DNA of 34,560 nucleotides from a virus. Shown in pieces: positions 3,709-34,560 of this stretch. The DNA is taken from positions 1 to 34,560 of the IMG/VR virus record IMGVR_UViG_3300017698_000040. One strand, 5' to 3'. The notes under the pieces are model-generated. The model saw only the letters and a list, made by a program, of their open reading frames with translations, searched no databases and was not told the origin of the DNA. The translations under genes were made by a program, and so were the position numbers. Every line of letters starts with the position of its first letter. Positions within the stretch are counted from its first letter, which is position 1.

Positions 3709-6700
3709 TATCTCGCTCCAAGTTTGATAGCTTTTTCACGTTTTAGATTCTGAACGTCAAGAAATAACCTTGTATCTTCTTCAAGTAATACCTGTTTCGC
3801 TGCATTGCGATAGCTCTCAAAGACTGCACGGATCAATGTTGACTTTCCACCCTCTTGACCTTCCGTAGCGCTCTGATAAATTGGCTTCCTGAAAAGTTCT
3901 GTTAATTCACGTTTTAATGGATTTTTAACAAATCGGTTGTTTTCCCCTGCATAGAGCCTAATATATTTATCATATTGATGCGAATTAAGTTCGACACCAT
4001 CAATCACATTTCTAGGCATTCTGAGAAGTGTTTTTTGTGCAACAATCTCATCAGCAACAGGGTCTTTCTTGTTCTCACTGGTGTATATTGGAGACATAAT
4101 ATCTGGACCGAGGCCACCACTCAAAACAATAGGTTCTCCAAAAATATTTCTTCGCGGAGGCAGATCATCTGAAAACCCTGGGATACGAGACTTAATCTTT
4201 TCAAGTATACCCTGAGTTGCCTCAAGTTCTGGTGAGACAACACGCTCCAATCCTGCAACACCTGATGGTACTATAGATCCTGCAAAGCGCTCAACCCAGC
4301 GTCTCGCACGTTTATTGTTGTCTTCTGGGTCTGCACTAACGCTGCTCATCACATCGAAAAATTCGGAAACTCCAGATAGATAAGTCTTTGAAGTAATGTT
4401 CTGCGCAGCCGCGACAACAGATGATGTAGCTAAATCAAGAGCGTCTGCGTCTTCTGTTTGGCCTATTATTTCAGAAATATCAGCCGCAAGACCTATTGTT
4501 GCTCCAACCGGGTCAAGCCTACTGTATGAGAAATATTCATCACCAACTTTAATTGAATACGGTTGCCATCCTGTTTCGCGAAGCCTTGCTTTCATTTGTG
4601 GATTTTTTGGCCCACCGCCAGTAACCTGACCTGACAATGTATAATCAGCAGCAGCAGCCATAATCATTGATCCTGTCGCGATTTTAGCCAAAGCAAGGTC
4701 ACGCCTTGCACCGCCAGCGGCAACCTCCTCCCTGACACGTTTAGACAGTGGAGCAAGTATCGTTCTTTCACGGGCATACTTCATGATGTTTACAGGTGTT
4801 CTAATAAATGGAACGATCAACCTTGCTCCTGGAGTTTTCTGAACAAAGTTTTGCAGTGCCTGTCCACCCTCCTCAAGCGGTTTAGTGAATGTTTGATATC
4901 TACTGGCATCGATAGCCAATAAATCAAGGTTTTCAGGTGGATTTTCAATGATCTCTGTAACCCGTCTTGCAAGATCATCACCCTGCAAACCTTCCCCTGT
5001 TGCCTGTCTGAATGCTTGGGCGTGAAGTTCCATTCTGTAGCCGATTGACTTAAAAAGCTCATCTCCAGCTGTAAGGAATCTGCCTGGAACTCTGACAGCC
5101 TCACCAACAAAATCAGCAAAACGACCGGCAGTTCCAGAAAGATTCAAATTCTCGGCTGTAATTGCTCTATGTCCTTGCGCTTCAACTTTTGTGATAACGT
5201 CTTCTGGTTCACCTGTTTTTAGCGCTTTCCATGCTAAACGCATTCCGTCTTTTGTGCCTTGCACCATTCCGAAAGCTTGAGCAGCTGCTTCACCTTCGGG
5301 GATGTTTTGGAAGTCAAGACCACCGCCGATAACTGAAGCAACTTTTCTCTCAGCAACAGCCCAACCAGCAACAATGGAGTTTGAAAGAACATTGACGGTA
5401 TGCGTTGATGGGTTACTCAGAAGCCCGTTAATCCAAGCCTCATAGATCATTGCTTTTGTTTTTGCTCCAGATGCTTGCTTGACGAAGGTATTAATCTGAT
5501 GGGGACCCTCAAGTTGAGCAAGTTGACCGGCTAGTGTCCTTGAATTCTCAGCGCCACCACCGGCCTCAAGAGCCTCCTTGATCATTCGTTCTTGTTCTTT
5601 TGCGCTTCTGGCAACGATATTAAACGAACCTAGAGCGCGGCCAGCTTCAGCGGTAAGCCCTGAAACCTGCGCTTGAATTGCATGGTGTCGTGACATCGCT
5701 TTTCTGAATTTCAGAACATCAACTTCAGCCCCTGCTTTTGCTTCTTTTGCAAGCTTTATAAGGTTTTCACCTGAAGCAACCAGTATCTTTCTTGCTGCAA
5801 CCGCTTGTTCAGCATTGAACGCTTCCCCCCTACGTCTTTGGAGAAGGCCTTCGACTGACATACCTAGATCATCGGCAAGCTTCTCAGTTTCTTCTCTGGT
5901 GATAATCTCACGCCTTGCCTCGTTGATATCTTTTGAAAACTTATCAGCAACACCATCTATCAACTTCACAACATCTTCCTCAGTGTCGAGTCGATCGGTA
6001 TTGATATTTAATGCTCGCTCTTTTCCTGCTGGCTTTGATCCAACTTTGAAAGCCGGGTCTTCTGTGTCATCGAACTGCTTGAATTCAGGCTCACTCTTTT
6101 CAGTAGGAACTAACCCTCTTTCATCCGCCTCAACATCTGCCAATCGTTCAATCTGAGCCGTTTCTTCTTGCGCCGCTTTCTTTGTTATCTTTGTTCTCCT
6201 GTTTGCCCTGACACCCTTTGCGGCAAAGAAAAACCCCTCAGTCAACGCACCAAGACCAAGCCCTTCAACGGCATTCTTGAAGCGACCTTCTGCCTCTGAG
6301 TCTTCCGGATCTGCTGCAAGGTATTCAGTCACGGGGTTTTGCAATGCTGGGAACTCTTGAACTAGATTAGAAAAACGCTCTTCGTGTGGGTCAAAGACAA
6401 TTACATCAGCCGCAGCCCCAGCGGATGCAGCCTTTGCCGCTTTACCAACGACTGAAGCAGCTTTGACACCTTTGATTGCTCTTGTCGCTGGCAAAAAACC
6501 CGTAAGAAATTGAGCAACGCCGCGAACAAGATTCCCCGTTGTTGATTCTGGATCTTTTACTTCAACGCCAGACAGTGGAGTTTCCCCCCCCCTTGATTCA
6601 AACTCTTCACGCGATACAAGATCAAGATCAAACTCTCCTTTTTTATTCGTCAATTGAAGCACTGATGGGACGCTGATAGCGCTCAGAAGAGAGTCAGACG

Positions 6701-24088: not shown

Positions 24089-24419
24089 CTTTGCTGTGTT
24101 GGGGTGTGGCGTTGAGGGCTTTCTCTGCCATTGATCCATCAAGCGAAGCTCCCTGCCTACTTGATATTCCCTCTAAAGCATCCCGCATCACAACGTTCTC
24201 AGCCTTGAGTTTATCAACTTTACTACTAAGCTCAGAAAGCCTAACCGCTGCATTTGCACAAACTAAATCAGCATCTCGGTCAAGCTCTGCTGGAACACGC
24301 ATAGTAATTTCATGACTAACGTTCCCTTTTTTTCTAGCAAAAACGTCTGACAAATATGCTAATCTACTACTAAGAGCCTTCGTAGGCACCTCTGAAAATT
24401 CTTTAAAATCTGTACTCAT
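24063..24419 (-). CDS. Hypothetical coiled-coil protein (118 aa)
   Basis: I place the start at ATG 24417-24419, after a GGAGGAGGTG SD, rather than at 24461. Confidence 0.7.
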   Translation of the reverse strand: MSTDFKEFSEVPTKALSSRLAYLSDVFARKKGNVSHEITMRVPAELDRDADLVCANAAVRLSELSSKVDKLKAENVVMRDALEGISSRQGASLDGSMAEKALNATPQHSKGAEGNSRC

Positions 24420-24432
24420 CTTTTCACCTCCT

Positions 24433-24487
24433 CCCCTCCCCACCAACATCAACAAATTCACTACAAAATATTGTGGTGGCGGGAGGG
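24433..24487 (-). promoter_or_regulatory. Imperfect GC-rich hairpin immediately 5' of the SD of the 118-aa gene
   Basis: cccctccccacca (24433..24445) pairs with tggtggcgggaggg (24474..24487) in about 12 pairs, with one bulge and one mismatch, around a 28-nt loop. The distal arm overlaps a GGGCGTTAG motif copy. Confidence 0.45.
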
Positions 24488-24495
24488 CGTTAGAG
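24485..24495 (-). repeat. Motif B copy (plus strand GGGCGTTAGAG; minus strand CTCTAACGCCC)
   Basis: One of three exact GGGCGTTAG copies on the same strand within 1.3 kb. This copy is not attached to a stop codon. Confidence 0.6.
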
Positions 24496-24524
24496 TTAAT
24501 TTATTTTAGCTATCGTGTAACTTG

Positions 24525-24582
24525 CTGATATTGTGTTGTGGTTTTCTGTCTAGCACCATATTGGCTCACAATATTCTGTCTA
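24525..24582 (-). promoter_or_regulatory. Two tandem promoter-like elements (TAGACA-N16-TATGGT and TAGACA-N16-TATCAG) with ATATTGTG/CACAATAT repeats
   Basis: The direct repeat ttctgtcta occurs at 24544..24552 and 24574..24582. atattgtg occurs at 24468..24475 and 24528..24535, and its inverse cacaatat at 24567..24574. Confidence 0.4.
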
Positions 24583-24625
24583 TCTCACTGTTGTATTGCT
24601 TAAAAAGTTTAGCCCTGCCCCACGC

Positions 24626-24877
24626 TCAAATATCTTTAAGGTGCTCGCCAAGAAACGCTATAATTTCTTCAGCCTTTTCCTTATCAATATCAATGCTCGT
24701 TTCGCTGTCGCTGTATCCGTGAGCAGGTGAATGTTCCACGTAATCAAGGGTCAAACTGCTACCGAACCCGGTATATTTCGTTAATTCGAAACGGCAGGTT
24801 TTACTAATTTCCAATATTTTTTCTTCCACGCTCAATCCTTTCTGCAATACAACAAGCCGCCCAACTCGACGAAACAT
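24626..24877 (-). CDS. Hypothetical protein (83 aa; start uncertain)
   Basis: ORF track. The ATG at 24877 lacks an SD, whereas an internal GVG-frame GTG (V17) has an AAAGGA SD. Confidence 0.55.
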   Translation of the reverse strand: MFRRVGRLVVLQKGLSVEEKILEISKTCRFELTKYTGFGSSLTLDYVEHSPAHGYSDSETSIDIDKEKAEEIIAFLGEHLKDI

Positions 24878-24922
24878 GTCTCTGTTTTATTATTTATCCG
24901 GCCTACCGCCGCAAGTTAGCTA

Positions 24923-24934
24923 GGGCGTTAGGCA
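24923..24934 (-). repeat. Motif B copy spanning the stop codon of the 105-aa gene (GGGCGTTAGGCA)
   Basis: GTTAGGC (24927..24933) is complementary to GCCTAAC (25260..25266) in the 5' leader of the same gene. Confidence 0.6.
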
Positions 24935-25233
24935 GCAAAACAAACGTCAACGAACAGCCCTGACTCCATCTCAAAATAGACATTACCCTGGAAATCATCA
25001 CCGCAAATCCCGCATGTTTGGTCTACCCATTCGTAATTAAATCCGGGAACGTCTGACTCTTGCTTGTCGCCTTTCGGCTCATCGGTAAAACCAACGATAG
25101 ACACATGTTGGAAATCCCGCCTTAAGGTTTCTAGGACTATTTGCAATCTATCAATCACCCCTACCTTTTTTTTCTGTCGCTGACGGCGCGCCCTGTCTCC
25201 AAAAATGTCTGCACTTGTTAATCCATCACTCAT
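24928..25233 (-). CDS. Hypothetical protein (101 aa)
   Basis: I place the start at ATG 25231-25233, 5 nt after a GGAGGTGG SD, rather than at 25245. Confidence 0.7.
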   Translation of the reverse strand: MSDGLTSADIFGDRARRQRQKKKVGVIDRLQIVLETLRRDFQHVSIVGFTDEPKGDKQESDVPGFNYEWVDQTCGICGDDFQGNVYFEMESGLFVDVCFAA

Positions 25234-25245
25234 ATCCACCTCCAT

Positions 25246-25703
25246 AAATTAGTGGTATCGCCTAACAATTAGATCCACGCGGAAAAACGATACTGCTGTT
25301 TTCCGGTGATCAGGGGCGTTATGTGGCCCCACAGGTGCAACGTTCTACCACTAGCCTAGCCTTATGGTAGTGGTTCGCTGGGCAACATGGGGCGTGGTGC
25401 TTGTTGTCTACCTTCTGCCTGCCCTTTATTCACTTAAGAAGGTGCTTTGTCCCAAACTTTGGCTCAACCCAAAGAAGCCTCATTCTCGTTTCAACTCGTA
25501 TTAACTTCATCCGTTGCAGAAAAATTAATAGCTTTCGTTCGTTCTCTGTAATTATGTTCTTACCTCGCTCGAAATATTTCACATAACAAGCAAATCAAAC
25601 GGATTTGCGGGGCAGCTGCATCTTACTCTATTCTTCCCGTCAAGTTCTTAGCAGCTGGCTCCATGCCTCAACAAGTCAACCCGCAATCCAGTTATTAAGG
25701 GCG
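25246..25703. other. 458-nt gap with no plausible ORF; candidate structured RNA or cis-element region
   Basis: All three minus-strand frames are broken by frequent stops, and the longest ATG ORF is 26 aa. The two plus-strand track ORFs look non-coding. Several local hairpins are present: GGGGC-N8-GCCCC at 25313..25330, CGGAAAA/TTTTTCCG around 25281..25306, and CAGCTGC/GCAGCTG at 25612..25657. Confidence 0.6.
25259..25271 (-). repeat. Motif A copy (plus strand CGCCTAACAATTA; minus strand TAATTGTTAGGCG) in the 5' leader of the 105-aa gene
   Basis: CTAACAAT occurs three times on this strand within 1.1 kb. This copy lies 27 nt upstream of the start codon. Confidence 0.6.
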
Positions 25704-25710
25704 TTAGGTT
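25699..25710 (-). repeat. Motif B copy spanning the Dam stop codon (GGGCGTTAGGTT)
   Basis: GTTAGGTT (25703..25710) is complementary to AACCTAAC (26215..26222) in the Dam leader. It can also pair locally, GGCGTTA (25700..25706) with TAACGCC (25718..25724). Confidence 0.6.
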
Positions 25711-26195
25711 TCAAAAATAACGCCGGGTATCCTCTTGATCGCTTCTACGTTCTCGGCACCAAAGGCAAGCAACATGCTGCCAGTTCCGGCGTTAGAGGAT
25801 TTTGAGCCATCATGTCGAATAAAAGAGAGTCGGCCTTTTATGAAATTAACAGCGTCAGCGTGTTTTATCGCCTCTTGCCCCCATCCTGTTTCTGTTCGGC
25901 CAAAGACAAGCGCTATCCCGTTTCCGTGGGCTTTCAATTTCTGTAACCATTTGCCGATTTCCCGACCATACGGGGGGTTAAGCCATACTCTACCTATCCA
26001 GTCGGTAGCTATCCCGCACCCGCCAACATCCTCGCAAATATGAACCTTCGCAGTATCAAACGGGCGGAAGGTTTGCGTGCATGGATCCATGTCAAACGGG
26101 CCGAGTTTTTCCACAATTTCGGCAGGGGTAAACCAAGTGTTCGTTTGGCCCTCATGCGTTACTGAGTCACAACTAAAAAAGGACTTGTTTTCCAT
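25704..26195 (-). CDS. dam: DNA N6-adenine methyltransferase, phage Dam type (163 aa)
   Basis: The motifs WFTPAEIVEKLGPFDMDPC and VWLNPPYG (catalytic NPPY), followed by FGRTETGW and GRLSFI, match the phage Dam (PF05869) layout. Confidence 0.85.
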   Translation of the reverse strand: MENKSFFSCDSVTHEGQTNTWFTPAEIVEKLGPFDMDPCTQTFRPFDTAKVHICEDVGGCGIATDWIGRVWLNPPYGREIGKWLQKLKAHGNGIALVFGRTETGWGQEAIKHADAVNFIKGRLSFIRHDGSKSSNAGTGSMLLAFGAENVEAIKRIPGVIFET

Positions 26196-26214
26196 AGTTA
26201 CCTCGCTGGCAAGA

Positions 26215-26227
26215 AACCTAACAATTT
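26215..26227 (-). repeat. Motif A copy (plus strand AACCTAACAATTT) in the Dam 5' leader
   Basis: It lies 20 nt upstream of the Dam ATG and has 8-bp complementarity to the motif B copy at the Dam stop codon. Confidence 0.6.
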
Positions 26228-26307
26228 AATCAACCGGACTGAAATTACTTCTGTTTTTCTCAAATACGCGCTACTAAGCCAGCCGGCATTCCGCAGCCGG
26301 TTATCAT

Positions 26308-26337
26308 GGTCGTTAGCCAGACTTCGGCTAACAATCC
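26308..26337 (-). repeat. 'Empty' motif B + motif A unit forming a 7-bp hairpin (GGTCGTTAGCC agacttc GGCTAACAATCC)
   Basis: GTTAGCC (26312..26318) pairs with GGCTAAC (26326..26332) around a 7-nt loop. The flanks match the B (GGNCGTTAG) and A (CTAACAAT) consensus. Confidence 0.6.
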
Positions 26338-26387
26338 TCTGCAAACGGATATAATCTTTGGGCCTGAGTTAACGCCGTATATTTCAA

Positions 26388-26885
26388 TCATGCTGCGTCC
26401 TCCTCTTTCTGTTTCTTTTGCACCCTTTTTCTCTGGTCATAACTGCTATAGAAAATTTTCAATTTACTAGTTTCCTCTGACCACCCCTTATTTGGAAATA
26501 AGTTTTCCATGTGCATCATCCCATCTATCGTTTTCTCCCTTCCTATGCCCCCCATAATTCCACGGATAAGGAGACATGCTTTTTTTGCATGGTCACTGTT
26601 TTGTTCTTTATCAAAAACGGTTTCTTTATTTTGGTTTTTCTTTCTTTCCTGAATTGCTATTTGCTCTCTTATTTGTGCCGAGTTATCACGAATAATTTTT
26701 ATTAACCCGCTTGGCGTGGGTAAGTATCCATTCGCATTTTCAAGAAATCCGACAACCTTTCCACATACCTCTACAGGTTCCTTTAAAATATCCCTGATTA
26801 TGAAATCGCGGTGTTGGTTCTGGTAGTTCTTGCCATGGAGAAGTTCTATTCTTGAGACTAGAGCGTTTGCCTGTTCTTTTGTCAT
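26388..26885 (-). CDS. Hypothetical protein downstream of the initiator-like gene (165 aa)
   Basis: I place the start at ATG 26883-26885, which is ATGA-coupled to the upstream stop. No motif was recognised. Confidence 0.7.
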   Translation of the reverse strand: MTKEQANALVSRIELLHGKNYQNQHRDFIIRDILKEPVEVCGKVVGFLENANGYLPTPSGLIKIIRDNSAQIREQIAIQERKKNQNKETVFDKEQNSDHAKKACLLIRGIMGGIGREKTIDGMMHMENLFPNKGWSEETSKLKIFYSSYDQRKRVQKKQKEEDAA

Positions 26886-27517
26886 TTTGTGTCCCCTAAA
26901 CAAAGCCGCTCAAAATCATCAACATCACTATTCGTTGCAGGACTGTCTTGAGCGACTTTAATAACGTAATTAATCGACTTTGCACCTGCGTCACTTGCAG
27001 CCTTGAAACCTCTCTCAACGTCAGGCTTGAACACTTGTGTTAATTGCCTAAGACTTTCTGCTCTACCAGCTGTCATGATCGGTTGCCAACCAAGATATTT
27101 AACAGCGAGAGCATTGAGAGATTTCATATCAAAAAATTCAGAATCCTCATCTGGTTGTTCTGTCTCTGTCTCTGTCTCTGTCTCTGTCTCTGGTGCGTCA
27201 CTTTTGTCATTTATGGTTACCATTTGGTTGTCACTTGGTTGACATGCGGTTGCCATGAAGCCTAACTCAATGAATTTATTGATATTTGGCTCTTCATCCA
27301 AAAGACATATTTTCCGAATAACTCGCGGTGATTTGGGAATTAGACCTTGCTTATCAGCGGCAACCAACCAGATTGAAACGAGTTGACCTTTTTCCGCATC
27401 GGTTAATTCTGCCCACTCAGCGTTACTTAAAAGATTACGATAAACCTTAACCCATGGTGGAGTTCCGCGATCTTTACGGTAGGTCTGCCATTTTTCCCAA
27501 CCAGATATTTTAAGCAT
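26882..27517 (-). CDS. Replication initiator / replisome-organiser-like protein (211 aa) with an internal (ET)5 linker
   Basis: The ATG at 27515-27517 lies 6 nt after a GGAG SD. The N-terminus WEKWQTYRKDRGTPPWVKVYRNLLSNAEWAELTDAEKGQLVSIWLVAA fits the pattern seen in phage replication-initiation/winged-helix proteins. The gene contains iteron-like repeats. Confidence 0.6.
   Translation of the reverse strand: MLKISGWEKWQTYRKDRGTPPWVKVYRNLLSNAEWAELTDAEKGQLVSIWLVAADKQGLIPKSPRVIRKICLLDEEPNINKFIELGFMATACQPSDNQMVTINDKSDAPETETETETETEQPDEDSEFFDMKSLNALAVKYLGWQPIMTAGRAESLRQLTQVFKPDVERGFKAASDAGAKSINYVIKVAQDSPATNSDVDDFERLCLGDTK
27161..27190. repeat. Hexanucleotide microsatellite (TGTCTC)x5 encoding (ET)5 on the minus strand
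   Basis: Five perfect tandem copies were read directly from the sequence. They are in frame within the initiator-like gene. Confidence 0.95.
27215..27258. repeat. Four tandem 11-bp iteron-like repeats (GGTTACCATTT GGTTGTCACTT GGTTGACATGC GGTTGCCATGA); candidate ori
   Basis: GGTT starts at 27215, 27226, 27237 and 27248, an exact 11-bp phase. GTCAC/GTCAT half-copies lie at 27197 and 27206, and GGTTGCCAA at 27081. An AT-rich stretch at about 27118..27150 is nearby. Confidence 0.55.
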
Positions 27518-28772: not shown

Positions 28773-29707
28773 ACAACGAATTAATTGTGATCGAAAAGGT
28801 TAACCCAATCGAAGTTTTTACCGGCAACGGGCTAGACCCATTGTTGGAGCAAATCAAAAGGGAAGTATCTGCTTTTGAGCCTAATCTTGAAACGGTAACT
28901 GGACGTAAAGAAGTTGCTTCAATGGCTCACAAGGTTAGCAAGTCAAAGGTTGTTATTGACAATCTCGGTAAGGACTTGGTCGCGGATTGGAGGCAGAAAT
29001 CAAAACAAGTGGACGCAGCCAGGAAGTCAGCGCGTGATTTTCTCGACAACCTGAAAGAAGAAGTCCGCAAGCCTTTGACAGAGTGGGAGGAGGAAGAAAA
29101 AGCCAGAGTCGAAGCAGAACAACTCAAACAGGAAATTAAACTCGCTCATGAATCTGCTATTGCTGAAAATGATTTATTTGATCGCCAGCGAGACATTGAG
29201 CGTAAAGAGGCTGAACTTGCCAAGCAAGAAGAAGAGCGCAAGGCGAAGGAATTATCCGAACAGCAAGAGCGTGAGCGTGTTGAGCGTGAAGAGCGATTAA
29301 AGAAAGAGGCCGCTGAAAAAGCAAAGCGAGAGGCAGAAGAGAGCGCCAAGCGTGAGCGCGAAGAGTTGCAACGGAAAGAGCGTGAAGCTATCGAGGCAAA
29401 AGAACGCGCAGAGCGTGAAAAGATCGCGGCCGAAGAACGGTCAAAGCTTGAAAAGCAACAGGCGATTGAGAACGAGCAGCGCAAAGCGAAAGAAGAGGCA
29501 GAGCGGGTCGAACGTGAGCGCCTTGAAAAACAGCGCATCGAAAAAGAGGAAGCTGAGCGTAAGGCAGCAAACAAACGCCACCAAGGAAATGTTAATCGTG
29601 AGGCAAAAGAGAGCCTTGTTGCCGCTGGATTCGACAATGGAATGGCTAAGGATATTGTGGTTTTGATCGCTCAAGGAAAAATCAAGAACGTCACAATCAA
29701 TTATTAA
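28769..29707 (+). CDS. DUF1351-family protein with a long E/R/K-rich helical spacer (312 aa)
   Basis: I place the start at ATG 28769 (GGGGGAG SD, ATGA coupling). The N-terminus NNELIVIEKVNPIEVFTGNGLDPLLEQIKREV and the C-terminus ..IAQGKIKNVTINY are typical of DUF1351 proteins found beside Erf/RecT genes. Confidence 0.75.
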   Translation: MNNELIVIEKVNPIEVFTGNGLDPLLEQIKREVSAFEPNLETVTGRKEVASMAHKVSKSKVVIDNLGKDLVADWRQKSKQVDAARKSARDFLDNLKEEVRKPLTEWEEEEKARVEAEQLKQEIKLAHESAIAENDLFDRQRDIERKEAELAKQEEERKAKELSEQQERERVEREERLKKEAAEKAKREAEESAKREREELQRKEREAIEAKERAEREKIAAEERSKLEKQQAIENEQRKAKEEAERVERERLEKQRIEKEEAERKAANKRHQGNVNREAKESLVAAGFDNGMAKDIVVLIAQGKIKNVTINY

Positions 29708-29718
29708 CGGGGGTAATT

Positions 29719-30429
29719 ATGCCAAACAACTTAGCAGTAAAAGAAGAGGCAGCAATGCAGACGGTCACGCCAATGAGTCTTCTGCAAGCCGCCCAACAGA
29801 GCAATGCAAGTGTAGAACAGCTTCAACAACTAATGGAATTACAAATCCGCTGGGAAGAGAACGAAGCCAGAAAAGCATTCAACGATGCAATGGCTAACTT
29901 CCGCGAAGAATGCCCAACGATAGCAAGAACTAGGAAAGGACACAACTCAAACTATGCCGGTCTTGCTGAGACTATCACGCAAATCAAGCCGCTATTAGCC
30001 AAACATGGCTTGTCTCATCGTTGGAGCACTAATCAAATGGAAGGTGGTATTTCAGTTACTTGCACCATTACTCATAGGCTCGGCCATTGCGAGTCAACAG
30101 AGTTGTCAGCAGACGCAGACAAGAGCGGAAATAAAAACGTCATTCAGGCTATCGGCTCAACGGTCGCATATCTTGAAAGATACACCTTATTTGCAATTCT
30201 TGGACTTGCTTCTGCCGACCAAGATAATGACGGTTGCGATTTTGGCCGTGATCCATCTCGCTATATCACCGAGAGTCAACTTGCAGATATTGAGGCCTTA
30301 ATTGATGAAGTTAAGGCAGATGAAAATCAATTCTGTAGCTGGATTGGAGCTAAATTTCTAGCAGATATCCCAGCGTCAAGGTTTGATAAAGCGGTTAAAG
30401 CTCTTGAATCAAAGCGGGGGAAATCATGA
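29719..30429 (+). CDS. erf: Erf-family single-strand annealing protein (236 aa)
   Basis: NYAGLAETITQIKPLLAKHGLS...ITHRLGHCE...QAIGSTVAYLERYTLFAILGLASADQDNDG matches the ERF superfamily core. Confidence 0.85.
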   Translation: MPNNLAVKEEAAMQTVTPMSLLQAAQQSNASVEQLQQLMELQIRWEENEARKAFNDAMANFREECPTIARTRKGHNSNYAGLAETITQIKPLLAKHGLSHRWSTNQMEGGISVTCTITHRLGHCESTELSADADKSGNKNVIQAIGSTVAYLERYTLFAILGLASADQDNDGCDFGRDPSRYITESQLADIEALIDEVKADENQFCSWIGAKFLADIPASRFDKAVKALESKRGKS

Positions 30430-34281: not shown

Positions 34282-34560
34282 CTATTTGCTTTTTCTATTT
34301 GCGATTGATTCGATACCTTTTCCAACTTGCCTTAACCCTGCATATGACCAAGGTAGCGCCATTAAAACAAGCATAACCTCCATACTTGGTATGTCTTTGA
34401 ATCCTACATATACAATGGCAGCAATAAGGCTCAGCCAACTCTGAAGCGGCCTTGTCCACCTAACGAGTACATCGTCAGCTTTGTCAGCGTTTCGGATCGT
34501 CTCTTGTGTTTCGTGATGAGACTTCTGTTCGTCCTCAAGGTCAAGCTTAGTCATTTCACG
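34282..34560 (-). CDS. 3-TM holin, C-terminal part (same gene as 1..342; the last 99 nt of the window duplicate 1..99)
   Basis: The track ORF MTKLDLEDEQ...RWTRPLQSWLSLIAAIVYVGF...MLVLMALPWSYAGL has no stop upstream in frame before the window end. The frame is continuous with 342..1. Confidence 0.75.
   Translation of the reverse strand, partial: REMTKLDLEDEQKSHHETQETIRNADKADDVLVRWTRPLQSWLSLIAAIVYVGFKDIPSMEVMLVLMALPWSYAGLRQVGKGIESIANRKSK
34462..34560. repeat. Terminal direct repeat, copy 2 (identical to 1..99)
   Basis: Direct comparison of the two window ends. Confidence 0.95.

Follow-up and report, generated by a model that had tools for sequence, protein, structure and literature searches.

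Introduction

The attC sites of integrons are recombined by the integron integrase as a folded single strand, the bottom strand being preferred, and crossover at G|TT leaves the R-box halves of one cassette flanking its gene. PeSL elements of T4-type phages are direct repeats of an early sigma-70-type promoter and a stem-loop that recombine by homology.

Phage cassette arrays of the CALIN type, clusters of attC sites lacking an integron integrase, were first reported in 2023 (Qi et al., Front Microbiol, PMC9892861). The examples include MW202573, Pseudoalteromonas phage H101/PH101, Polaribacter phage P12002L and Tetrasphaera phage TJE1, and the phage-borne cassettes include five methyltransferases (PMC9892861). 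The same study describes boundary hairpins of inverted boxes at the edges of other phage CALINs and reports a test of six attC sites from integrase-free phages, five of which IntI1 recombined. The polarity of the phage arrays relative to their genes is not discussed there.

Here we analyse a window of 34,560 nt (IMG/VR record IMGVR_UViG_3300017698_000040) from an uncultured marine phage, in which positions 26337 to 24590 of the minus strand very probably represent an integron-type cassette array in a complete, integrase-free genome, i.e. a CALIN. Like the phage CALINs described so far, the window has no integrase and groups several attC sites of one orientation within a few kb; its cassettes hold single small genes, one of them for a DNA methyltransferase, inverted GTTRRRY boxes form a hairpin at the array boundary, and the box sequences are nearly identical to theirs (CTAACG..., ...TTGTTAG). 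The layout of MW202573 is especially alike (GTTAGAC..gene..GTCTAAC, GTTAGGTTT..methylase..AAACCTAAC, GTTAGGC..gene..GCCTAAC), its R boxes co-varying across genes. The cargo of the window differs, comprising a Dam-family gene (PF05869), an ORFan and a member of a small phage protein family. Bacterial integrons (class 1 mobile; Vibrio and Shewanella chromosomal) resemble the window in their R''/R' boxes RYYYAAC / GTTRRRY, the extrahelical L-box base, the unpaired spacer, the variable terminal loop and promoterless cassettes with the R-box halves of one cassette flanking its gene. In contrast to them the window has no intI, attI or Pc promoter, its genes move with the upstream attC, and they would lie antisense to Pc if inserted at attI. 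The window would add a clean complete-genome case to the ~20 phages known to carry attC sites.

Methods

An array was classified as a CALIN if at least two attC sites lay within ~4 kb and intI was not nearby. Two covariance models were built here, standing in for the published IntegronFinder and HattCI models. Model R1 comprised six attC bottom strands, namely five from Table S3 of PMC9892861 and the class-1-like attC of IMG/VR contig L173; two P12002L sites were excluded from it (misaligned in a first MAFFT alignment of eight attC sites). Model R2 comprised 18 attC sites from other records, the window being left out of training. The E-values of both models are rough because of the few training sequences and the short calibration. 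Negative controls were 757 kb of terminase relatives, 917 kb of unrelated viral contigs, each picked for carrying both end motifs correctly spaced, and a further 110 kb. Motif anatomy, attC-model matches with their controls, co-variation and integrase absence are reported as observations.

Results and Discussion

As a sequence-only reading of this DNA had claimed, the motif GGGCGTTAG occurs in exact copies at 24485, 24923 and 25699. It is absent elsewhere in the window. With one mismatch allowed we found 10 matches against 3.76 expected from shuffles, and one-mismatch copies at 25314, 25787 and 26308 lie within the array region; the near copy previously placed at 25313 is thus present, but it starts at 25314. 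The second motif, CTAACAAT, does occur exactly three times (25262, 26218, 26328), a count that by itself is not significant and is reached in 13 of 100 shuffles. Read on the minus strand, nnCTAACGCCC (motif B) represents the R' box and 5' arm of an integron attC, and ATTGTTAGnn (motif A) its 3' arm and R'' box. A scan of IMG/VR for TAACGCCC-N30-60-ATTGTTAG returned at least 120 matches, mostly chance, as expected with 16 specified bases. One of them, in contig L173, is a textbook attC; this class-1-like site has CTAACAATT and GGGCGTTAG in common with the window. The extended 5'-arm pattern TAACGMCCMTGATMACCGG was found twice in IMG/VR, which is chance level, and the exact motifs were not enriched in 80 terminase relatives (~70% amino-acid identity), with never more than one copy per locus.

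The attC models single out the same intervals. The best four R2 matches in the window (36.3, 35.0, 29.7 and 21.9 bits; next best 10.4) coincide exactly with the four minus-strand intervals that start at motif B and end at motif A. The stricter model R1 found only one of them, site c, as its top match (25325-25259, minus strand, 25.5 bits; next 11.9). Throughout the control phage DNA (~1.7-1.9 Mb), scores of at least 20 bits were confined to the relative L002 and to experimentally validated phage attC sites. The terminase relatives gave a single match (24.6 bits in L002, itself cassette-like), the unrelated viral contigs reached at best 17.5 bits, and the further 110 kb gave no match. Positive controls outside the training set scored 42.4 (PH101_attC1), 28.9 (TJE1_attC1) and 36.3 bits (TJE1_attC2), further PH101 and TJE1 array sites 28-46 bits, and the sites of the window score within the range of the positive-control attC sites.

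The anatomy of the four sites also follows that of attC. They are imperfect palindromes of 65-131 nt, within the ~57-141 nt expected of attC (21.9-36.3 bits with R2), and the boxes GCCTAAC / GTTAGGC and ACCTAAC / GTTAGGT fit RYYYAAC / GTTRRRY exactly, while GGCTAAC, CACATAAC and ATACAAC are one base off the consensus and retain AAC / GTT. In the 3' arms the TTGA-N5-TTGTTAG spacing is canonical, and an extrahelical G is kept as in attC aadA7. Folded as single-stranded DNA, the continuous sites are hardly better than shuffled sequence (z +0.2 to -1.9), a measure that is not decisive alone; some validated phage attC sites likewise fold no better.

Read along the minus strand, the array begins with a boundary hairpin (26306..26337, ATTGTTAGCC-gaagtct-GGCTAACGACC), and the structure GTTAGCC-N7-GGCTAAC proposed earlier is confirmed at 26306-26337. 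Seven nucleotides separate a lone R''-type box, GTTAGCC (26332-26326), from the R' box GGCTAAC (26318-26312), which opens the first complete attC (site a), and crossover is predicted between 26313 and 26312. The hairpin folds as single-stranded DNA at -7.0 kcal/mol (z = -2.8). It had been taken for an "empty unit", an unoccupied full site. A complete attC was not detected there or upstream of it (best 0.3 bits), and the structure is not a full site: two inverted GTTRRRY-type boxes form a hairpin at the boundary.

Site a (26215..26319, minus strand, 105 nt) matches R2 on the minus strand only, at 35.0 bits (rough E ~2e-6). Its L-box, ATAACCGG / CCGGTT[G]AT, carries an extrahelical G on the 3' arm, and CCGGTT[G]AT resembles CGGCTT[G]AA of attC aadA7. 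The 3' box of site a, GTTAGGTTTC (26222-26213), belongs with the first cassette, whose gene (25704..26195, minus strand) encodes a Dam-family N6-adenine DNA methyltransferase of 163 aa as judged by Pfam and PHROG; its R' box GAAACCTAAC (25712-25703) contains the TAA stop. Site b (25580..25710, minus strand, 131 nt; R2 21.9 bits, rough E ~0.003) is the weakest of the four and has a long stem, GGATTGCGGG / CCCCGCAAATCC, ending in the R'' box GTTATGTG (25587-25580). This box and CACATAAC (25325-25318) bracket the second cassette, for which the ORF list gives a 50-aa GTG ORF (25430..25582, minus strand) that may be non-coding.

Site c (25259..25325, minus strand, 67 nt; R1 25.5 bits, rough E ~7e-5; R2 36.3 bits) has an unpaired spacer between its R box and a 13-bp stem; the stem closes a 12-nt loop and bears two bulged bases in its 3' arm. 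Cassette gene 3, a 105-aa ORF (24928..25245, minus strand) taken from the ORF list, is enclosed by a 7-bp complement of the R'' box GTTAGGC (25266-25260) and the R' box GCCTAAC (24933-24927), with the TAA stop inside the latter. Site d (24846..24934, minus strand, 89 nt; R2 29.7 bits, rough E ~4e-5) ends in the R'' box GTTGTATTGC (24853-24844). The gene of the fourth cassette, assigned to a small phage protein family by its homologues, is listed as an ORF of 83 aa (24626..24877, minus strand), and its unit ends at the R' box GCAATACAAC (24599-24590). Because the sequence to the right of the 24590 crossover (CAGTGAG...) is not attC-like, the GCAATACAAC crossover is likely the downstream end of the array. 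Further along, one exact motif copy forms a lone R'-type arm without a partner box (CTCTAACGCCC, 24485..24495, minus strand), joined to a GC-rich hairpin (~24484-24425) that immediately precedes the next gene's ribosome-binding site. No complete attC was detected at this arm (best 0.6 bits), which is a remnant or half-site.

That complements co-vary so as to enclose single genes had been noticed before, and the pattern proved stronger than claimed: five units, not three, carry inverted boxes matching across the enclosed gene. The complement spanning the gene measures, in order, 7, 10, 8, 7 and 10 bp, compared with only 5, 4, 4 and 3 bp between the neighbouring boxes inside one continuous attC, and the actual pairing of boxes is the unique best among 120 possible pairings. 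The Dam pair GTTAGGTTTC / GAAACCTAAC comprises 10 bp. Two further pairs were found. One, GTTATGTG (25587-25580) with CACATAAC (25325-25318), spans 8 bp and contains a compensating change within the "conserved" core (GTTAT / ATAAC); the other, GTTGTATTGC (24853-24844) with GCAATACAAC (24599-24590), spans 10 bp plus 1, longer than any other inverted repeat of the region. R-box halves thus match better across the gene than within a continuous attC, which is the footprint of an integron crossover at G|TT.

The proposed mechanism would run as follows. A host-supplied integron integrase would fold one attC strand into a hairpin and cut it at ..AA|C, which reads G|TT on the opposite strand, and an excised unit would therefore bear one R-box stem half at either end. 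Once such units are strung together, both halves of a unit's stem would flank its gene, which is the co-variation that we observe. The array would probably have grown by insertion at the small hairpin GTTAGCC-N7-GGCTAA|C, and between the four complete attC sites would lie single promoterless genes, read as part of the phage early operon. The earlier suggestion of attC-like sites and mobile cassettes is backed by the covariance-model matches, by the co-variation across genes and by the published phage examples of like layout.

It had also been suggested that the boxes act as RNA, the 5' and 3' boxes pairing in the mRNA as processing or stabilising stems. Complementary boxes do bracket every coding region on the transcribed strand, but stems of 7-10 bp closing loops of 260-520 nt are thermodynamically weak, and the attC-like interior, the extrahelical bases and the model matches between the motifs are left unexplained. 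A search of the region against Rfam gave no family at the gathering threshold and noise only at an E-value threshold. We consider this reading extremely improbable; it is unneeded and explains less.

The PeSL-like reading, more broadly one of integron-unrelated phage regulatory cassettes (PeSL-like, or terminator or operator hairpins) shuffled by homologous recombination, has several features to its credit: the units flank single early genes, motif A stands at a fixed distance upstream of start codons, and the conserved 8-9-mers are possible short homology patches. PeSL and the elements of the window are both repeated and intergenic, flank single early genes in a hypervariable region and have been proposed as gene shufflers. 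They part ways in structure, the window showing attC-type imperfect palindromes, boxes pairing across genes and no detected promoter component. There are 10 promoter-like sites against 10.1 expected, none at unit borders on the coding strand, and 7 terminator-like sites against 4.3 expected; neither class is enriched or consistently positioned at the borders, and direct repeats carrying a promoter, typical of PeSL, are not seen. Homologous exchange would not yield complementary gene-proximal boxes, and attC-model matches of 22-36 bits on one strand only, with nearly none in control phage DNA, speak for attC. A regulatory origin is therefore very unlikely.

The window represents a complete circular genome of 34,461 bp (99-bp terminal overlap); when 40 of its ORFs, all long ones among them, were scanned with Pfam, neither an integrase nor any tyrosine recombinase appeared. 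Four attC-like sites lie within 1.5 kb, and a 7-bp hairpin instead of an attI bounds the array upstream. Since the genome is complete and without integrase, the array would be a CALIN rather than part of a complete integron. Megablast of the region against GenBank phages gave zero matches, and the carrier phage appears to be new and unrelated to the known phage CALIN carriers. Its terminase relatives are uncultured marine podovirus-like contigs. In tblastn searches of the early ORFs against them only orf104, orf69 and the terminase subunits were common to both, and the stretch from 27529 to 23757 was without any homology. For the flanking genes (a 215-aa replication-like protein and a 171-aa ORF) no relatives were found in IMG/VR or JGI metagenome contigs, nor was any close relative phage found that shows cassette presence/absence at the matching junction.

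We infer that the array was built by an integron integrase and that it may still be mobile. The alternative of an attC-derived but inert fossil array, in which the hairpins now serve only as intergenic spacers or RNA/DNA hairpins, appears unlikely. It would accommodate the missing integrase, the weak site b, the degenerate half-sites at both ends, the modest folding of the continuous sites and the fact that a variant array was found in no relative. However, no mismatch interrupts the 7-10 bp of the across-gene stems and one core change is compensated, which points to recent mobilisation or to selection; three of the sites score as high as attC sites that recombine; and the phage attC sites recombined by IntI1 (5/6) all came from integrase-free phages (PMC9892861). 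If the integron reading holds, the mosaic accessory gene region of an uncultured marine phage would have been built at least partly by integron-type site-specific recombination and not only by illegitimate or homologous exchange, and an anti-restriction-type methylase would be among the cassette cargo.

The polarity of the cassettes departs from the bacterial norm. All four sites match bottom-strand models on the coding (minus) strand, so the strand carrying the cassette genes is also the one with the attC bottom-strand sequence, opposite to the true integrons L206 and L207, where model matches are antisense to the cassette genes. This leaves attC and CALIN membership unaffected and marks the cassettes as inverted. 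With the bottom strand as the coding strand, each gene therefore travels with its upstream attC. Two stop codons are TAA at the crossover point; as noticed earlier, the stops of the Dam gene and of the 105-aa ORF both lie inside motif B, within CTAAC. The same bottom-strand-coding polarity is seen in MW202573, PH101 (bottom strand assayed), P12002L, L173 and L002, and the canonical polarity in TJE1 and in two arrays captured from host integrons. This mirror polarity, consistent in several independent phage arrays, is a concrete and testable pattern that might account for the use of host integrases by phages whose cassettes stay apart from the bacterial pool, and it could aid the annotation of cassette borders in viral metagenomes. 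It is conceivable, although we hold it only tentatively, that phages keep their own mirror-polarity attC pool and that host integrases drive phage-to-phage gene exchange. If so, a cassette of this pool would move with its attC upstream of the gene and its stop codon at the crossover. Such cassettes would be read correctly in phage operons and antisense to Pc in a bacterial integron, and a phage exchange network of methylases and small early genes would at the level of expression be largely distinct from the pool of bacterial cassettes.

Among the cargo genes, the Dam-family protein (Pfam PF05869, E = 2.2e-12; PHROG 111, E = 6.6e-30) fits the methyltransferase cargo of the phage-borne cassettes in PMC9892861. 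No Dam homologue (up to 78% identity) or orf83 homologue examined in other contigs is flanked by attC. Transfer of the window's own cassettes was not seen; Dam and the orf83 family occur in other phages without attC. The 105-aa ORF has no homologues, its sole database match being the phage itself, and it likely starts at the second ATG (25233, after GGAGGTG), giving 101 aa. Motif A had been placed 20-27 nt upstream of start codons, and this spacing needs a small correction for the 105-aa ORF, whose likely ATG sits 28 nt away. For orf83 the true start probably lies beyond the R'' box in the downstream direction, at TTG 24847 or GTG 24828; the orf83 homologues are 70-81 aa long and span only 72-81% of the query.

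Results and Discussion

The motif pair is a real finding, and its best explanation is that a complete phage genome carries an array of integron-type cassettes, a CALIN (cluster of attC sites lacking an integron integrase). Elements of this kind were already described in 2023 by Qi et al. (PMC9892861), and the window adds another example. That study reported 17 CALINs in phage genomes, found that IntI1 recombined five of the six phage attC sites assayed, counted five methyltransferases among phage-borne cassettes and provides bottom-strand attC sequences in its Table S3.

Window bases 1-99 are identical to bases 34462-34560, and this 99-bp direct overlap of the ends shows that the window is no fragment but a complete circular assembly, 34,461 bp long. 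The phage is podovirus-like (T7-type capsid, scaffold and portal; terminase, ERF, YqaJ exonuclease, SSB, NinG and M15 peptidase), and Pfam scans of 40 ORFs, all long ones included, detected no tyrosine recombinase. The same phage is found in two Logan contigs at 99.9% identity. Terminase relatives occur at ~70% identity in many aquatic IMG/VR contigs and at 55-69% in metagenome-assembled genomes of marine Gammaproteobacteria. Within the early operon, the motif region is flanked by replication-type genes on one side and the small terminase subunit on the other; no homologue of any gene from 27529 to 23757 was found among 80 terminase relatives. A 215-aa replication-like protein nearby has only a weak PHROG match (DnaD-like helicase loader) and carries a TETETETE stretch encoded by a short TCTGTC/TCTCTG repeat (27155-27186).

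All elements listed in the sequence-only reading are present when 24300-26500 is read on the minus strand. The plus-strand sequence GGGCGTTAG (minus strand, CTAACGCCC) has exact copies at 24485, 24923 and 25699 and no others in 34.5 kb, and three one-mismatch copies (25314, 25787, 26308) are grouped within the same 1.9 kb; CTAACAAT is found three times (25262, 26218, 26328). Both the Dam-family gene (25704-26195, minus) and the 105-aa ORF (24928-25245, minus) indeed stop with a TAA within CTAAC. Motif B, the motif at these stops, is longer than first described (CTAACGCCC-tgATaACCGG, family D1 of a repeat search). In integron attC sites, GTTAGGC is the consensus core (GTTRRRY) and GCCTAAC the inverse core (RYYYAAC). 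In a pattern scan of IMG/VR most matches were chance ones; one contig (L173, 5,678 nt) held a textbook class-1-like attC, GCCAGCTAACAATTCATTCAAGCCGAC...GGCTTAATTCGGGCGTTAGCC, with both motifs inside. L173 is phage-like (C5-methylase, HNH and nin-type genes) and has several class-1-like attC at its end (reverse-complement, ~4760-5450). The small gene adjoining the attC is on its bottom-strand side, enclosed by an 11-bp box pair, GTTAGCTGGCA and TGCCAGCTAAC. This array is either phage DNA or neighbouring host integron DNA.

A covariance model of attC (R1) was built from six bottom strands (aadA7, two of TJE1, two of PH101 and L173) with R-box and L-box pairs imposed. With filters off its top match in the window was 25325-25259 (minus, 25.5 bits; runner-up 11.9 bits), and it also recovered the arrays of Vibrio phage MK672802, Shewanella phage MZ568829 and MW202573. 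A second model (R2), built from 18 such matches, none of them from the window, found four minus-strand sites: a (26319-26215, 35.0 bits), b (25710-25580, 21.9 bits), c (25325-25259, 36.3 bits) and d (24934-24846, 29.7 bits). These coincide exactly with the stretches that run from a motif B to the motif A after it (the motif upstream of the starts); the fifth-best match reached 10.4 bits only. R2 gave a single match in 757 kb of terminase relatives, namely 24.6 bits in contig L002, within the corresponding early region. Among unrelated viral contigs that all have TAACGCCC-N30-60-ATTGTTAG (917 kb), the best score was only 17.5 bits, and 110 kb of other loci gave no match. Sites outside the training set scored 39-46 bits in the PH101 array and 28-36 bits in that of TJE1. 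Judged by these controls, the four sites look like working attC sites, as far as small and roughly calibrated models can indicate.

The claim that variable bases co-vary across genes holds for five units, two more than first seen. Model alignments added GTTATGTG (25587-25580) pairing with CACATAAC (25325-25318) around a 50-aa ORF, and, enclosing the orf83 gene, GTTGTATTGC (24853-24844) with GCAATACAAC (24599-24590), the latter pair being the region's longest inverted repeat (I1, repeat search). The supposed near copy of motif B does exist (25314); it is, however, a compensated variant, since the A in ATAAC answers the T in GTTAT. Anchored at GTT and AAC, complementarity across genes extends over 7, 10, 8, 7 and 10 bp; the two end boxes of one continuous attC match over just 5, 4, 4 and 3 bp. 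Of all 120 ways to pair the boxes, the observed one alone gives the maximum. Integron recombination takes place at G|TT, and an integrated attC ends in bases that come from the neighbouring cassette; a cassette's own R-box halves therefore flank its gene. Such cross-gene co-variation is a known consequence of this mechanism. Long-range RNA pairing of the boxes would also join the two ends of each gene, but is a weak alternative, as pairing over such a range would be weak and leaves the attC-like interiors unexplained. The most serious alternative is a fossil array that has lost its mobility, although the perfect 7-10-bp stems speak against great age. The published phage CALIN of MW202573 shows the same cross-gene pairing in four consecutive units. 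L002 (IMGVR_UViG_3300038825_001249, 121-1117; terminase 73% identical) carries its attC-like site on the coding strand, with GTTAGCAG / CTGCTAAC enclosing a 74-aa ORF and GTTATGCGGA / TCCGCATAAC enclosing three small ORFs.

Bottom-strand models match antisense to the cassette genes in L206 and L207, which are true integrons, and likewise in TJE1. In the window the matches fall on the coding strand, as they do in MW202573 (2060-3740), PH101/H101 (489-2559), both P12002L sites (~29175-30059), L173 and L002. The published CALINs of MW202573, PH101 and P12002L thus have a polarity reverse to that of bacterial integrons and of TJE1, a feature not remarked on by Qi et al. (PMC9892861). The structure of site a agrees with this polarity: its minus-strand 3' arm has, like that of aadA7, an extrahelical G (here CCGGTT[G]AT) and TTGA-N5-TTGTTAG spacing. 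With the bottom strand coding, crossover in these phage arrays would occur directly behind the stop codon of the gene upstream, and the attC in front of a gene would move with it. This mirror polarity, which the window has in common with several other phage arrays, is noteworthy, and we regard it as a real difference.

The cassettes hold ordinary phage accessory genes, given that homologues of the Dam-family methylase and of orf83 occur in other phages with no attC beside them. The methylase (PF05869) has many homologues in other phage contigs, at up to 78% identity. One, in a high-GC phage with unrelated gene order (L203, IMGVR_UViG_3300020044_006239, 243-722), is 72% identical in amino acids; at the DNA level identity is only ~65% over 300 nt, suggesting wide spread of the family among phages. 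The orf83 homologues lack the first ~15 residues, so translation probably begins downstream of the R'' (terminal inverted) box. No homologues of the 105-aa ORF were found.

The hairpin at 26337-26306, first seen as an empty unit, is present, but no complete attC lies upstream of it and it is the border hairpin of the array. Comparable hairpins of inverted GTTRRRY boxes border the TJE1 and M16-3 arrays (PMC9892861). Nor is there a complete attC around the lone CTCTAACGCCC at 24495-24485, and the sequence right of the last crossover (24590) is not attC-like. In the simplest reconstruction, four cassettes totalling 1,722 bp would have been inserted at AA|C of the small hairpin GTTAGCC-N7-GGCTAAC, and we infer that the border hairpin was the primordial insertion site. 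A PeSL-type element, the mobile stem-loop cassette also considered in the sequence-only reading, is argued against by promoter-like and terminator-like sites being neither enriched nor set at the borders.

Some minor features were seen at the array ends. Gene calls for the Logan contig include a 43-aa ORF (26260-26391, minus), which has an ATGA overlap with the 171-aa gene's stop and runs through the border hairpin into site a; it may be spurious, or a read-through like some ORFs of MW202573. Immediately after the lone CTCTAACGCCC, and immediately before the GGAGG ribosome-binding site of a 132-aa ORF, lies a GC-rich hairpin, CCCTCCCGCCACCA ... TGGTGGGGAGGGG (24425-24484, minus); a classic terminator is ruled out as no T-run follows. 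The 103 nt from the last cassette crossover to the lone R' arm (24488-24590, minus) are ORF-free, contain two 20-nt direct repeats (plus strand, 24544 and 24574) and may be a decayed cassette or original phage flank.
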